This document shows, piece after piece, positions 7,550 to 57,039 of a DNA stretch of 64,000 bases. Location: NCBI GenBank assembly GCA_965221695.1, contig OZ244905.1, positions 2,752,001 through 2,816,000 of the forward strand, read 5' to 3'. Positions within the stretch are counted from its first letter, which is position 1. The number at the start of each line of letters is the position of its first letter. Source of the stretch: Gammaproteobacteria bacterium. Its GTDB lineage: Bacteria; Pseudomonadota; Gammaproteobacteria; Eutrophobiales; Eutrophobiaceae. Under the pieces are notes generated by a model, which saw only the letters and a program-made list of their open reading frames with translations, was not told the origin of the DNA and searched no databases. A program made the translations under genes and the position numbers.

Positions 7550-7578
7550 GGGACCTCTGATTAAGTCTCAGAGTTTCC
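7550..7578. repeat. 29-bp solo terminal hairpin of the IS5-type MITE family
   Basis: GGGACCTCTGA-TTAAGTC-TCAGAGTTTCC flanked on both sides by CAAG. Confidence 0.7.
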
Positions 7579-8816: not shown

Positions 8817-10130
8817 GTGGCGTCAAGACAAGGCTCAGTCCGCAGTCCGGTGAATAGTCTGAATCCCTCCCTGCGGGAATACTGGCCCCGGCGTTACACG
8901 CTGACCGGCCTGGCGGTTATCGCGATGTTCATCTGCTACATGGACCGGGTGAACATTTCCATTGCCATCATACCGATGGCTGACGACATGGGTTGGCAGC
9001 CGGAACAACAGGGCATGGTATTGTCGTCTTTTTTTCTCGGTTACCTGTTAACCCAGGTCCTCGGTGGCCGCCTGGCGGATCGCCATGGCGGCAAGCTTGT
9101 GCTGGGAGTTGCGGTACTGGTCTGGTCGTTGTTCACGTTTGTCACACCCGTAGCTGCAATGGCCGGTTTCGGCGCACTGCTCCTGGCGCGTATCGGTATG
9201 GGCGCAGGCGAAGGCGTGGCGTTGCCGGCCGTTTACAGTCTCTACGGTCGCTGGTTGCCGCGTCATGAGTTTTCCCGCGCCATTGGCGCTACCTTTTCTG
9301 CGATGACCCTGGGGATTGTTTTCGGCATGGCAGCCACGCCCTGGATCATCGTCAATTTCGGTTGGCACTGGGCATTTTATTCATTCGGTCTCGCCGGTTT
9401 TGCCTGGTTCATCTTCTGGCACAAAAGCGCTGCGTCGCATCCTGACCTGCATTCGGGTATCAGCGAGCAAGAGCGCGCGCTGATACGCAGGGATGCGGCG
9501 CCGGTCACGGCAACACAGGCGCCGCCCTGGGGCCAGTTGTTAACCACACCGGCCGTCTGGGCTATCATCGTGGCCCATTTCTGTTCCAACTGGGGTGTGT
9601 ACGTGCTGCTGGCGTGGATGCCCACCTATATCAACAAGGGGTTGCAGGTTGATTTCAATGCGGTGGGCTTGTATGCAATGATCCCCTACATCGCCGCCTT
9701 CCTGTTCTTTAACATAGCCGGCGCGCTCGCAGACAGACTGGCCATGCGTGGTTGGGAGACAATAAAAATCCGCAAGTTGATGCAAGTCATCGGTTTTGGC
9801 GGACCGGCGCTGATCCTGATGTTCGTCGGTAATGTCGATAATGCAGAAGCCGCGATTGCATTGATGACACTGGCCAATATTTTTATAGCCTTCAATGCGG
9901 GCGCTTTCATCGTCAACCACCTGGACATAGCCCCGAAATACGCCGGCGTTTTGATGGGCCTGTCGAACACGGCAGGCACAATACCGGGTATCATAGGCGT
10001 TTATGTCAGCGGAATGATACTGGGGCTGACTGGTTCGTGGACGCTGGTGTTTCAGCTCGCAGCGCTGGTATACCTGCTGGGGCTGGTATTCTACCTGGCG
10101 TTCGCATCGGGCAAACGCCTGTTTGATTAG
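8817..10130 (+). CDS. MFS transporter, anion:cation symporter (ACS) family
   Basis: CYMDRVNISIA, GGRLADRHG, DIAPKYAG; about 12 hydrophobic segments. Confidence 0.92.
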   Translation: MASRQGSVRSPVNSLNPSLREYWPRRYTLTGLAVIAMFICYMDRVNISIAIIPMADDMGWQPEQQGMVLSSFFLGYLLTQVLGGRLADRHGGKLVLGVAVLVWSLFTFVTPVAAMAGFGALLLARIGMGAGEGVALPAVYSLYGRWLPRHEFSRAIGATFSAMTLGIVFGMAATPWIIVNFGWHWAFYSFGLAGFAWFIFWHKSAASHPDLHSGISEQERALIRRDAAPVTATQAPPWGQLLTTPAVWAIIVAHFCSNWGVYVLLAWMPTYINKGLQVDFNAVGLYAMIPYIAAFLFFNIAGALADRLAMRGWETIKIRKLMQVIGFGGPALILMFVGNVDNAEAAIALMTLANIFIAFNAGAFIVNHLDIAPKYAGVLMGLSNTAGTIPGIIGVYVSGMILGLTGSWTLVFQLAALVYLLGLVFYLAFASGKRLFD

Positions 10131-10281
10131 GGAAACTCTGAACAAGTCCATCCTGGACTTGTCAGAGTACGGAAAACAAAAATGCGATTTTTGTTTTCCT
10201 CACAATATCAATGCCTTACAGACATTGATATTGACGATACATCCTTGTATCGTAGGAACCTCTGACTTAATCAGAGGTTCC
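10131..10281 (+). mobile_element. 151-bp IS5-type MITE, copy 1
   Basis: TIRs GGAAACTCTGA...TCAGAGGTTCC, TTAG direct repeats at 10127-10130 and 10282-10285, five internal hairpins; near-identical copies at 28532 and 33188. Confidence 0.9.
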
Positions 10282-10300
10282 TTAGTTTTGGAGACAACTT

Positions 10301-11161
10301 ATGCAATGGCAAATAGGCAAGGTAAAAATAACCCGTGTGGTTGAGTTGGTCGTCAGCGGAGACAACGAATTTGTGTTGCCGGACGCGCAAAACGAAAAGT
10401 GCCTGGCATACGACTGGATGCAGCCGCACTTCATGGATGAAAAAGGGTTTCTTCTTTTCAGCGTGCATGGTCTGATTGTCGATACCGGCGCCCACAAGGT
10501 CATGGTCGACACCTGTATCGGCAATGACAAGCAGTTGGCGGTTCCCACCTGGAATAATATGCAGACGAACTTTCTGGAAGACATGAAGGCCGCCGGGTAT
10601 GCGCGGGAGGATATCGATACGGTGCTGTGCACGCATCTTCACGTCGACCATGTGGGTTGGAATACCATGCTGGTGGACGGTAAATGGACGCCAACCTTCA
10701 ACAACGCCCGCTACCTGGTGGCGAAATCAGAGTGGGAGCACTGGGATGCCCATGAGGAGGAGATTGAGATAGGCCCGGTCATGCAGCAGTCCGTCCGGCC
10801 TGTAGTAGAGGCGGGGTTGATGGAACTGGTTGATCAGGATTACAGGGTCTGTCCCGAAATTAGACTGATACCGACACCCGGCCATACTCCGGGTCATGTG
10901 AGCGTGCTGATCTCGTCCGAAGACAACCAGGCGCTGATTACCGGCGATTTTATCCACCACCCGGTACAGATGACACGGCCTGATTGGTGCAGTTCGGCAG
11001 ATTCCGACTCCGCGCAAGGCCTGCTCACCAGGAAGGAGATCCTGGAACGGTATGCCGCCACCGAGGTCCTGATTATCGGCAGCCATTTCCCCACACCGAC
11101 CGCCGGTTATATCAAGCCCATGAGTAACGGTGATAATTACTGGCTGGACGTGAATGATTGA
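10301..11161 (+). CDS. MBL-fold metallo-hydrolase
   Basis: THLHVDHVG (HxHxDH), PGHTPGH, TGD and GSHF motifs. Confidence 0.92.
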   Translation: MQWQIGKVKITRVVELVVSGDNEFVLPDAQNEKCLAYDWMQPHFMDEKGFLLFSVHGLIVDTGAHKVMVDTCIGNDKQLAVPTWNNMQTNFLEDMKAAGYAREDIDTVLCTHLHVDHVGWNTMLVDGKWTPTFNNARYLVAKSEWEHWDAHEEEIEIGPVMQQSVRPVVEAGLMELVDQDYRVCPEIRLIPTPGHTPGHVSVLISSEDNQALITGDFIHHPVQMTRPDWCSSADSDSAQGLLTRKEILERYAATEVLIIGSHFPTPTAGYIKPMSNGDNYWLDVND

Positions 11162-21986: not shown

Positions 21987-22013
21987 GGAAACTCTGATTA
22001 AGTCAGAGCTTCT
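21987..22013. repeat. 27-bp solo terminal hairpin of the IS5-type MITE family
   Basis: GGAAACTCTGA-TTAAG-TCAGAGCTTCT flanked on both sides by TTAA. Confidence 0.75.
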
Positions 22014-27724: not shown

Positions 27725-28531
27725 ATGCAAGTCCAAGATAAAATGTTGCTGAAAGATAAGGTTGTATTTATTACCGGCGGCGCAAGAGGTATCGGTTACG
27801 GCATTGCTCATGCTGCCCTGGAAGCGGGGGCGCAGGTGGTTATCGGTGACCTGCATGAACATGCGGTGTTTGCCGCGCGGGAATCCCTGCTCGCGGAATT
27901 GCCCATCTCCGATAACGCGGCGCTGGCAACGACGCTTGACGTCGCGAATGAACTTTCAGTTCAAGAGGCCCTGGCCGCGGCTTGTTCGCATTTTGGCTAT
28001 TTGAACGGACTCGTCAACAATGCCGGAACCATTCGTCTTGGAGCGGATCTCGAAGCCAGTGTGGACGACTGGCAGGCCCAACTGGCGGTTAACGTCATTG
28101 GCACACACCTGTGCAGCCAAACGTTCACAAAATTACTCATCGGCAGGAAACAGCCAGGGGCTATCGTCAATATCGCCTCCAACTGCGGAAAAGTGGGTTA
28201 CCCGAACATGGCAGGGTACAACGCCAGCAAGGCCGCGGTAATCAATCTTACCCGTTCGCTGTCAAACGAGCTCAGCGCTCATAATATTAATGTCAATGCG
28301 ATCTGCCCCGGCGGAGTCTACACACCCATGCTGATGGAAGTCGCTGAAGTGGTCGGCCAGCGTATTGGCGAGAACCCGGCAGAACTGATAAAAACCATGG
28401 CGCCGGCGCAGTTGGGACGCCATATTGAACCCCTGGAAATCGGACGCGTTGCCGCATTCCTGTTATCCGACCACGCCAACATCATCCGCGGGCAGGCTAT
28501 CAATACCGATGGCGGGGAGACGCCGTATTAG
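27725..28531 (+). CDS. Short-chain dehydrogenase/reductase (polyol/acetoin dehydrogenase-like)
   Basis: TGGARGIG, NNAG, YNASK. Confidence 0.9.
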   Translation: MQVQDKMLLKDKVVFITGGARGIGYGIAHAALEAGAQVVIGDLHEHAVFAARESLLAELPISDNAALATTLDVANELSVQEALAAACSHFGYLNGLVNNAGTIRLGADLEASVDDWQAQLAVNVIGTHLCSQTFTKLLIGRKQPGAIVNIASNCGKVGYPNMAGYNASKAAVINLTRSLSNELSAHNINVNAICPGGVYTPMLMEVAEVVGQRIGENPAELIKTMAPAQLGRHIEPLEIGRVAAFLLSDHANIIRGQAINTDGGETPY

Positions 28532-28682
28532 GGAAACTCTGAACAAGTCCATCCTGGACTTGTCAGAGCACGGAAAACAAAAATGCGATTTTAGTTTTCC
28601 TCACAATATCAATGCCTTATAGTCATTGATTTTGACGATACATCCTTGTATCGTAGCAACCTCTGACTAAATCAGAGGTTCC
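28532..28682 (+). mobile_element. 151-bp IS5-type MITE, copy 2
   Basis: Same TIRs and hairpins as copy 1; flanks TTAG (contains the SDR stop codon) and CTAG. Confidence 0.9.
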
Positions 28683-33187: not shown

Positions 33188-33338
33188 GGAAACTCTGATT
33201 AAGTCAGAGTTTCCTGCGATACAGGGATGTATCGCCAAATTCAATGACGATAAGTCATTGAATTTGAGAGCAAAACAAAAATCGCATTTTTGTTTTGCGT
33301 GCTCTGACAAGTCCAGGATGGACTTGTTCAGAGCTTCC
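33188..33338 (-). mobile_element. 151-bp IS5-type MITE, copy 3 (inverted)
   Basis: Reverse-complement homolog of copy 1; CTAG repeats at 33184-33187 and 33339-33342; lies between convergent genes. Confidence 0.9.
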
Positions 33339-46530: not shown

Positions 46531-46559
46531 GGAAGCTCTGAGATTAAGTCAGAGCTTCC
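46531..46559. repeat. 29-bp solo terminal hairpin of the IS5-type MITE family
   Basis: GGAAGCTCTGA-GATTAAG-TCAGAGCTTCC, perfect 11-bp arms, TTAG on both sides. Confidence 0.8.
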
Positions 46560-56885: not shown

Positions 56886-57039
56886 GAATGCCTCTGAAAT
56901 TTAGAGGCGCCCGTGCGACATAGGGATGTGCCGCCATTTTCAATCGCTTAAGGCATTGAAATTGAAGGAAACGGAAAATCGGCATTTTTCATTTCCACCT
57001 CTGGAAATTTATCTGGTGATTTATGACTTTGAGTCGCCT
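56886..57039 (-). mobile_element. Diverged MITE relative with different termini, inside the hpa operon
   Basis: Internal hairpins align with H4, H3 and H2 of the 151-bp MITE; ends are GCCTCT...AGAGGCGCCC type; flanks TTAA/CTAA. Confidence 0.6.

Follow-up and report, generated by a model that had tools for sequence, protein, structure and literature searches.

Miniature transposable elements with inverted repeats (MITEs) of the Correia/NEMIS and ERIC types are 100 to 160 bp long, carry terminal repeats, insert at A/T-containing targets, touch the ends of genes and occur in internally deleted variants, and both Correia and ERIC elements have been reported to act at the RNA level. In the Bacillus cereus group, the bcr1 element is described, in excerpts of the review by Delihas, as about 155 bp long, flanked by 5-bp direct repeats and folded into two stem-loops that are kept by compensatory changes, with a variable genomic distribution and with stability lost in some copies or strains (PMC3184786). 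For the REPINs, excerpts of Bertels and Rainey report compensatory changes across hairpins, argue that selection acts on the replicating unit and suggest a DNA hairpin as an intermediate (PMC3116915), and stable stem-loop transcripts are taken as typical in the excerpted text of a 2024 review of prokaryotic MITEs (PMC10969869). Here we describe a 151-bp repeat found in a 64,000-nucleotide stretch of DNA from an uncultured member of the Gammaproteobacteria (contig OZ244905.1, positions 2,752,001 to 2,816,000; the whole stretch is called the window below), which sits in a single 3.54-Mb contig of 55% G+C. The element is non-coding and very abundant, runs from GGAAAC to GGTTCC, and is a MITE of IS5 type that consists of five local hairpins whose complementarity has been kept by real covariation.

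Our element resembles Correia/NEMIS and ERIC elements in size, terminal repeats, A/T targets, gene-end contacts and deletion variants, but the terminal repeats of those elements pair into one long hairpin, whereas here five hairpins are formed locally and the two ends are unpaired with each other. With bcr1, as that element is described in the excerpts (PMC3184786), it has in common its size, the short direct repeats at its flanks, a variable distribution, compensated stem-loops and the presence of destabilized copies; it differs in having five hairpins rather than two, IS5-type ends rather than 5-bp repeats, and no sign of RNA-type pairing, where bcr1 is reported to be transcribed with a fold at the RNA level. 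REPINs and the REP-RAYT system, to the extent that the excerpts cover them (PMC3116915), are likewise small, abundant, intergenic and selected as a replicating unit with a hairpin kept by compensatory changes; they are Y1 dependent and lack target duplications, in contrast to the 4-bp duplications, DDE-type ends and absence of a Y1 match seen here. Because bcr1 and REPINs already show compensatory changes in these sources (PMC3184786 and PMC3116915), the idea that conserved hairpins in a small mobile repeat are without precedent is too strong. What sets this family apart is the combination of DDE/IS5-type ends and duplications, five local hairpins, ends that pair with themselves, modular hairpins, and compensation that tracks copy number. 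The family is real and stands well above chance, and it belongs to selfish DNA, not to the demonstrated structured RNAs.

Three full-length copies, each of which folds into five hairpins, are read directly in the window, where an earlier note on this DNA had placed them: copy 1, of subfamily A, at positions 10131 to 10281 on the plus strand (173.3 bits with a covariance model), copy 2 at 28532 to 28682 on the plus strand, and copy 3, of subfamily B, at 33188 to 33338 on the minus strand (175.1 bits). By direct reading of the sequence, copy 1 has TTAG on its left (10127 to 10130) and TTAG on its right (10282 to 10285); copy 2 is flanked by TTAG and CTAG, and copy 3 by CTAG on both sides. Two of these copies do use the TAG stop of the upstream gene as part of their target, as had been proposed: the stop of the open reading frame (ORF) at 8817 to 10130 is part of the left TTAG of copy 1, and the TAG of the duplicated target of copy 2 ends the ORF at 27725 to 28531. 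Copy 3 is placed between the ends of two convergent genes, whose stops are 2 and 6 nt away.

The hairpin limits proposed earlier for copy 1 agree to the base with our folds, all five hairpins being given on the plus strand. The left terminal inverted repeat, GGAAACTCTGAACAAGTCC (10131 to 10149, plus strand), provides with its positions 5 to 19 the outer arm of hairpin 1 (10135 to 10168), in which the left end is paired with its own internal inverted copy. It is followed by hairpin 2 (10171 to 10199), which is A/T rich and variable in sequence, by hairpin 3 (10203 to 10233), which has the most variable stem, and by hairpin 4 (10234 to 10253), and the element closes with hairpin 5 (10255 to 10281), a palindrome of 27 bp in which the right terminal repeat is joined to its own internal inverted copy. 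The two terminal inverted repeats, GGAAaCTCTGAacAAGTC and GGAAcCTCTGAttAAGTC, agree at 15 of 18 positions, and each is also paired with its internal copy in hairpin 1 or hairpin 5. The loop of hairpin 1 (C-ATCC-TG) and that of hairpin 4 (C-ATCC-YT-G) are conserved in sequence. Copy 1 folds as RNA at -75.8 kcal/mol, compared with -29.5 +/- 3.7 kcal/mol for 200 dinucleotide shuffles, none of which was as good (z = -12.5); the opposite strand gives z = -11.9, and single-stranded DNA (ssDNA) parameters give z = -15.0, so that the fold is equally strong on both strands. All five paired changes that had been claimed between copies 1 and 3 are present, namely, A-T to G-C at element pair 5/38, G-C to C-G at 42/68, A-T to T-A at 76/100 and 77/99, A-T to G-C at 104/123, and C-G to A-T at 129/147.

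A BLAST search with copy 1 gave 280 non-nested matches in the 3.54-Mb genome, 87 of them full-length, and the behavior of their flanks identifies the repeat as mobile DNA. Identical 4-bp flanks are present at 64 of the 87 full-length copies, in 13 different sequences (TTAA 33 times, TTAG 7, CTAA 7, TAAA 5, CTAG 2, and eight others), and 49 of these 64 exact duplications conform to YTAR (TTAA, TTAG, CTAA, or CTAG). Since the flanks vary between copies but are identical at each, they are true target duplications with a YTAR/TTAA preference rather than a fixed flanking motif; IS5-group elements follow the ISfinder rule of a 4-bp duplication at YTAR-type targets. The YTAG flanks described in the earlier note thus apply to the copies in the window, but as a rule for the genome they have to be widened to YTAR/TTAA plus a few other targets. 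In the closest relative (G008), where the sequences that flank copy 2 are 95 to 97% identical and adjacent, the site reads GTA-CTAG-TGCAC, compared with TTAG, the 151-bp element and CTAG in the window. This is an empty site with a single copy of the target, and the element is therefore mobile. At copy 1, no empty-site contig was found among four public DNA runs, in which contigs break at the element, and contigs of two other samples run from the gene upstream of copy 1 into it.

An intact insertion sequence (IS) with the same ends was found in a congener (G001) by a search with the protein of an IS from another congener (G022). It is 1149 bp long, has a TTAA duplication, and has tips, GGAAGCTCTGA and GGAAACTCTGA, that do not differ from the left-hand and right-hand tips of the subfamily B MITE; the agreement is 11 of 11 positions at both tips and 14 to 15 of 16 over the repeat, and the first 11 nt of copy 1 equal the IS tips except for a variable fifth base. 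Its 313-aa transposase matches the NCBIfam model transpos_IS5_4 (NF033581) at 315 bits, above a cut-off of 140, and contains the domains DUF772 (PF05598) and DDE_Tnp_1 (PF01609). The element thus shares with this IS5-family IS the GGAA..CTCTGA terminal repeats and the 4-bp TTAA/YTAR duplication, but only about the first 19 nt are alike (16 of 19), the core is, as read, unrelated to the interior of the IS, and each MITE end finds its pairing partner in an internal copy of itself and not in the opposite end. The assignment to an IS5-type MITE, already made in the earlier note, is supported by the 4-bp, mostly YTAR duplications, by the empty site and by a congeneric IS5-family IS that shares the 11-nt tips of the element and lies between duplicated TTAA targets.

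The conservation of the internal fold was assessed on an alignment of 81 sequences, that is, the 3 window copies and 78 distinct copies from other genomes; 97 full-length model matches had been present in the fetched loci, from which 7 exact duplicates and 12 with large insertions or deletions were left out before the cross-genome count. The single-sequence fold was projected onto a MAFFT alignment for the pair counts, as RNAalifold on the plain MAFFT alignment recovered 25 pairs only and missed hairpin 3 through misalignment, and a covariance-model alignment of 129 rows, in which partial and opposite-strand echoes were mixed, was excluded from the counts. Standard pairs fill 91.1% of 4819 cells, compared with 81.2 +/- 0.3% after shuffling of the 3' letters (no value as high in 500 shuffles) and with 32 to 50% when partners are slid by 1 to 3 columns, a control in which relatedness is kept. 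Both sides have changed at 36 of the 60 pairs and in 500 cells, and the covariation score is 0.278, against 0.05 to 0.11 after sliding. By helix, 91.6% of cells are paired in hairpin 1, 94.9% in hairpin 2 (9 of 13 pairs changed on both sides), 96.1% in hairpin 4 (5 of 8) and 96.6% in hairpin 5. Hairpin 3 has 10 of 13 pairs changed on both sides and as many as four pair types at one position; its value of 78.5% is lowered by misalignment of the stem in MAFFT, and reading of the sequences reveals stems that are wholly different yet complementary between lineages. A single position may hold all four types, for example, AU 31, UA 26, CG 16 and GC 7, and a 77%-identical copy from another family-level lineage forms the same five ssDNA hairpins (z = -10.9). 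Real covariation, seen across many copies and genomes and well above both the shuffles and the slid partners, conserves the internal fold that had been proposed from the window copies. The ground on which the earlier note would have dropped its proposal, a lack of significant covariation in a large set of copies, therefore does not apply.

Where this constraint acts is revealed by the number of copies that share a change. Substitutions found in only one of the 87 copies fall 82 times in the 120 stem columns and 26 times in the 31 unpaired columns, where a uniform rate predicts 86 and 22, and private mutations of resident copies are thus not depleted in stems. Among the 79 pairs touched by such singletons, 74 are left non-Watson-Crick (33 other, 22 A.C, 17 G.T, 1 changed on both sides and 1 gap), and 2 are compensated by two private changes. 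The share of Watson-Crick pairs among variant pair states is 9 of 100 for states seen once and 4 of 44 for those in 2 or 3 copies, compared with 9 of 21 for states in at least 4 copies and 6 of 7 for those in at least 15, the single non-Watson-Crick state in this last class adjoining the loop of hairpin 3. Copies that are only 76 to 81% identical to the consensus retain 65 to 78% of their pairs, where independent decay of the two arms would leave 58 to 65%. In a replicate of 17 copies from a separate expansion, 15 singletons lie in 106 stem columns and 5 in 45 unpaired columns, and 11 of the 15 break a pair. Complementarity is therefore kept along multiplying lineages and lost in settled copies, which argues against purifying selection by the host at each locus and against efficient correction of palindromes in place.

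The second of these processes can also be considered in its neutral form, in which intrastrand template switching (quasipalindrome correction) copies mutations from one arm to the other and maintains the palindromes with no selection at all. Near-perfect palindromes with short loops are said, in work by Ripley and by Lovett and colleagues, to be substrates of quasipalindrome correction, and our five near-perfect palindromes with loops of 3 to 9 nt would be classic ones. Their pairing is strictly Watson-Crick with few G.T pairs, as arm-to-arm copying would leave it, and the modular gain, loss and insertion of hairpin units shows that hairpin-driven DNA events do occur in this family. Such a process would nevertheless be expected to repair what we find unrepaired, since nearly all privately hit pairs stay broken and old copies come close to the neutral expectation; a mutational process acting per locus does not predict that compensation rises with the copy number of a variant; and the copies show no replichore bias (44 versus 43 in replication orientation). 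We consider it unlikely that the palindromes are maintained in this way, and the systematic palindrome correction considered in the earlier note is, in its in-place form, disfavored.

The other idea put forward there, a structured mobile RNA, fares no better. In its host-level form it says that transcribed copies serve as 3'-untranslated-region stabilizers, terminators or processing sites from which the host benefits. The very stable RNA fold speaks for it, as does the report, in excerpts of the Delihas review, that bcr1 acts at the RNA level (PMC3184786). In addition, 17 of 71 gene 3' ends adjoining a copy abut or enter it (9 stops lie in the duplication, and 8 ORFs end at a TGA of the terminal repeat), and in tandem gene pairs the element points in the direction of the genes 21 times and in the opposite direction 10 times, a weak hint of a role at the transcript level. 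However, the stop-codon contacts are frequent because the target contains TAA or TAG, and neither the window copies nor the family sequences have a T-run belonging to the element after any hairpin. The copies are distributed over 24 divergent, 20 convergent and 31 tandem intergenic regions, with 12 inside ORF calls, roughly as space is available, and this context count, based on crude longest-ORF greedy gene calls, reveals no clear bias in orientation, toward a terminator position or toward 3' ends. The pairing itself does not look like that of an RNA. G.T and A.C make up 1.5% and 2.7% of stem cells across genomes, 36 G.T and 48 A.C distinct variant states occur in this genome, and G.U is no commoner than A.C on either strand, so that the tolerance of wobbles that an RNA helix would have is missing on both strands. 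The excess of A.C cells (91 versus 55 in this genome and 131 versus 71 across genomes) was considered as a strand signal and rejected, as it vanishes when distinct states are counted (48 versus 36). Given that resident copies also accumulate private stem mutations freely and lose the fold with age, a host-level RNA function appears rather improbable to us.

A different role for the host is conceivable, in which the hairpins render an insertion harmless, by hiding promoters or start sites or by insulation, and the transposase is indifferent to the fold. Such a filter by host tolerance predicts the same frequency-dependent compensation as our preferred explanation, and the copies do lie near genes, at median distances of 30 nt from 3' ends and 71 nt from 5' ends. 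If harm were strong enough to filter lineages, however, it should also purge residents with mutated stems, and the depletion that would follow is not seen. Nor does it explain why each terminal repeat pairs with its own internal copy or why units of 27 to 29 bp persist with duplications of their own (28 of 50). We regard this filter as a quite unlikely source of the pattern.

Compensatory hairpins are a hallmark of REPINs in the excerpts of Bertels and Rainey (PMC3116915), which raises the question of whether a single-strand HUH (Y1) transposase acts on the hairpins, as it would in REP/REPIN-RAYT systems or in palindromic elements derived from IS200/IS605, with the terminal repeats and duplications being incidental. 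The C-ATCC loop, conserved in hairpins 1 and 4 and recurring in the extra hairpin cassettes of relatives, would be in keeping with such a route. The varied 4-bp duplications and the clean empty site are not; to our knowledge, Y1 transposases do not make target duplications. Moreover, no match to Y1_Tnp (PF01797) was found in this genome, where 6 of 14 control genomes were positive, and there is no strand bias with respect to replication. Target duplications, the lack of replication bias and the lack of a Y1 gene together largely rule out an IS200/REP-type single-strand route, and we accordingly give the Y1 explanation next to no weight. C-ATCC-loop hairpins were also considered as a separate REP-like family and were rejected in that role, as 22 of the 59 extra matches belong to one 279-bp tandem repeat in a gene. 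This repeat is present as 22 perfect 279-bp (93-codon) units at about 1086800 to 1092700 of the genome contig, apparently inside a long coding frame.

Our results lead us to favor, with a probability of roughly 0.45, the explanation that an IS5-family DDE transposase supplied in trans moves this MITE and that the hairpins of the element are selected for its own propagation, probably as DNA. The selected step would then be transposition itself, and the active form would be DNA and not RNA. An IS5-family DDE transposase may recognize the GGAANCTCTGA ends and insert the element with a 4-bp duplication at TTAA/YTAR; the hairpins would raise the chance of being moved, with the fold acting in cis on DNA during transposition, and only lineages with complementary stems would make many copies, a landed copy being free to decay. 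Hairpins 1 and 5 might rebuild each terminal repeat as an intrastrand duplex, and if the five palindromes were extruded, in a cruciform or in ssDNA, a stiff 151-bp rod could collapse so that the ends meet for synapsis. Extrusion would thereby shorten the path between the two cleavage sites, the element having too little length to form a loop as B-DNA. A stronger form of this proposal, an IS5-family DDE system whose non-autonomous partner must form intrastrand DNA hairpins in order to move, is one that we put forward tentatively and hold to be doubtful. In that form, each terminal repeat would be presented as a hairpin paired with itself, the three covarying spacer hairpins would collapse a molecule below the persistence length so that its ends can synapse, and the end-loop-end units with duplications of their own would be the smallest self-sufficient substrates.

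Several observations weigh against selection of the hairpins for transposition by such an enzyme. IS5-family DDE transposases act on double-stranded ends, and we know of no hairpin requirement for them. The singleton test has limited power, a stem depletion of up to about a third being compatible with the counts, and singletons are young, so that host selection, if weak, could escape it. Much the same frequency pattern would result from a host filter that acts as the element inserts, and the orientation of copies in tandem gene pairs hints weakly at an effect on transcripts. Finally, the IS and the MITE are partly decoupled across genomes: an intact IS with matching ends is present in 1 of 41 genomes searched, that of G001, the congener G022 has the IS but no MITE match, and no DDE_Tnp_1 match that could be the partner of the recent burst was found in this genome or in G008, which hold the youngest and most numerous copies.

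The search for this partner can be summarized as follows. This genome (G000), its nearest relative G008 and G013 have 43, 40 and 15 MITE matches, respectively, yet no DDE_Tnp_1 (PF01609) match. The sole IS5-like trace in this genome is a 202-aa DUF772 frame outside the window (contig positions 2871239 to 2871460, minus strand; L001), which was rejected as the parent IS, as it has no DDE domain and no MITE-like ends. Likewise, 19 pairs of ends lie 300 to 4000 bp apart in this genome, and no enclosed transposase was found in the 8 loci inspected. Among 30 congener DDE_Tnp_1 loci, two in G022 (L052 and L068) are disrupted copies of a roughly 1150-bp IS with MITE-like ends, and broken relatives of the G001 IS also occur in G014. 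The IS5 transposase with matching inverted repeats that the earlier note proposed to look for exists in intact form in a congener but was not found in this genome.

The element is also present in many partial and extended forms. Once neighboring pieces are merged, the genome holds 253 related loci, of which 93 have all five hairpins, 83 only hairpin 5, 32 only hairpin 1, 14 hairpins 4 and 5, and 9 hairpins 1, 4 and 5 in short forms of 82 to 91 bp, the remaining classes being smaller; partial or modular loci number about 160. In the window, the terminal motif GGAANCTCTGA occurs 12 times (0.08 expected), and a fourth copy, a degenerate relic at 56886 to 57023 on the minus strand (42.9 bits with the covariance model), has recognizable hairpins 2 to 5 and has lost hairpin 1. 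The window also contains three solo end-loop-end palindromes, namely, 29 bp at 7550 to 7578 with a CAAG duplication, 27 bp at 21987 to 22013 with a TTAA duplication, and 29 bp at 46531 to 46559 with a TTAG duplication. Genome-wide, 50 end-loop-end units lie outside full copies, 28 of them with exact duplications; in many, the left-end variant of a subfamily is joined to the right-end variant of that same subfamily. These solo units suggest that the ends alone are a recognizable unit, and those of 27 to 29 bp could equally be the smallest mobile units or in-place deletions between 11-nt direct repeats.

At the other extreme are several long forms of 223 to 231 bp, with an extra block of about 72 bp that carries three more hairpins between hairpins 3 and 4 (outside the window, at 1137682-1137911, 1316929-1317154, 1336032-1336254, 382594-382824 and 1204943-1205171 of the genome contig). 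The block occurs in both subfamily A and subfamily B backgrounds, which implies that the subfamilies have exchanged sequence or that a hairpin cassette has been inserted repeatedly. In other genomes, copies have gained further small hairpin cassettes, placed within the standard hairpins or between them (L040, L141 and L154; L094, L095 and L149; L108 and L123; L103, L109 and L125), one of which is found at two places in L154 and has the same C-ATCC loop motif as hairpins 1 and 4.

Abundance is also reflected in public sequencing data. Summed contig depth over the element (window positions 10096 to 10338, runs X1 to X3) exceeds the depth of the flanks two- to three-hundredfold, reaching 35230 in run X1, compared with about 100 in the flanks, and contigs stop at the element borders. 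The element is thus a major cause of assembly breaks for its host organisms.

Beyond this genome, 18 of 22 further members of the genus were found to carry the element, as were 1 of 2 other genera of the family and 3 of 16 other sampled families of the class, with copies in distant genomes being 75 to 83% identical. An exact-pattern scan of 185,579 species genomes returned at least 94 stretches; among the matches listed, all records are titled uncultured Gammaproteobacteria, Proteobacteria or 'Chromatiales', and some host lineages are labeled in record titles as relatives of upland-soil methane oxidizers. The hosts are uncultured soil and groundwater bacteria. A plasmid collection held no match to the element. 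Rfam 15, a comparison that the earlier note had proposed, gave no family match in the window at gathering thresholds, and permissive thresholds gave only 3 chance-level matches of 20 to 24 bits, compared with thresholds of 42 to 60. A full-text search for the 16-nt end string retrieved 0 papers, and the literature yielded reviews and precedents but nothing on this family. By the excerpted account of a RefSeq-based MITE census, most metagenome-assembled genomes were left out of it, and the family may still be among its supplementary sequences (PMC11602168). As far as Rfam and the literature searched go, the family seems to be uncatalogued in its hosts.

Our findings add a large, apparently uncatalogued repeat family, one that touches many gene ends, to the genomes of uncultured Gammaproteobacteria. 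They also provide a clean natural data set whose covariation, a feature generally taken to prove a functional RNA, finds a better explanation in selection on the mobile element itself, and this calls for caution in covariation-based RNA discovery in repeats. The question of whether very short DDE-type elements need DNA secondary structure in order to transpose becomes testable with this family, and, if the hairpin requirement is real, the covariation in these repeats would record that a double-strand transposase had selected on a DNA structure.

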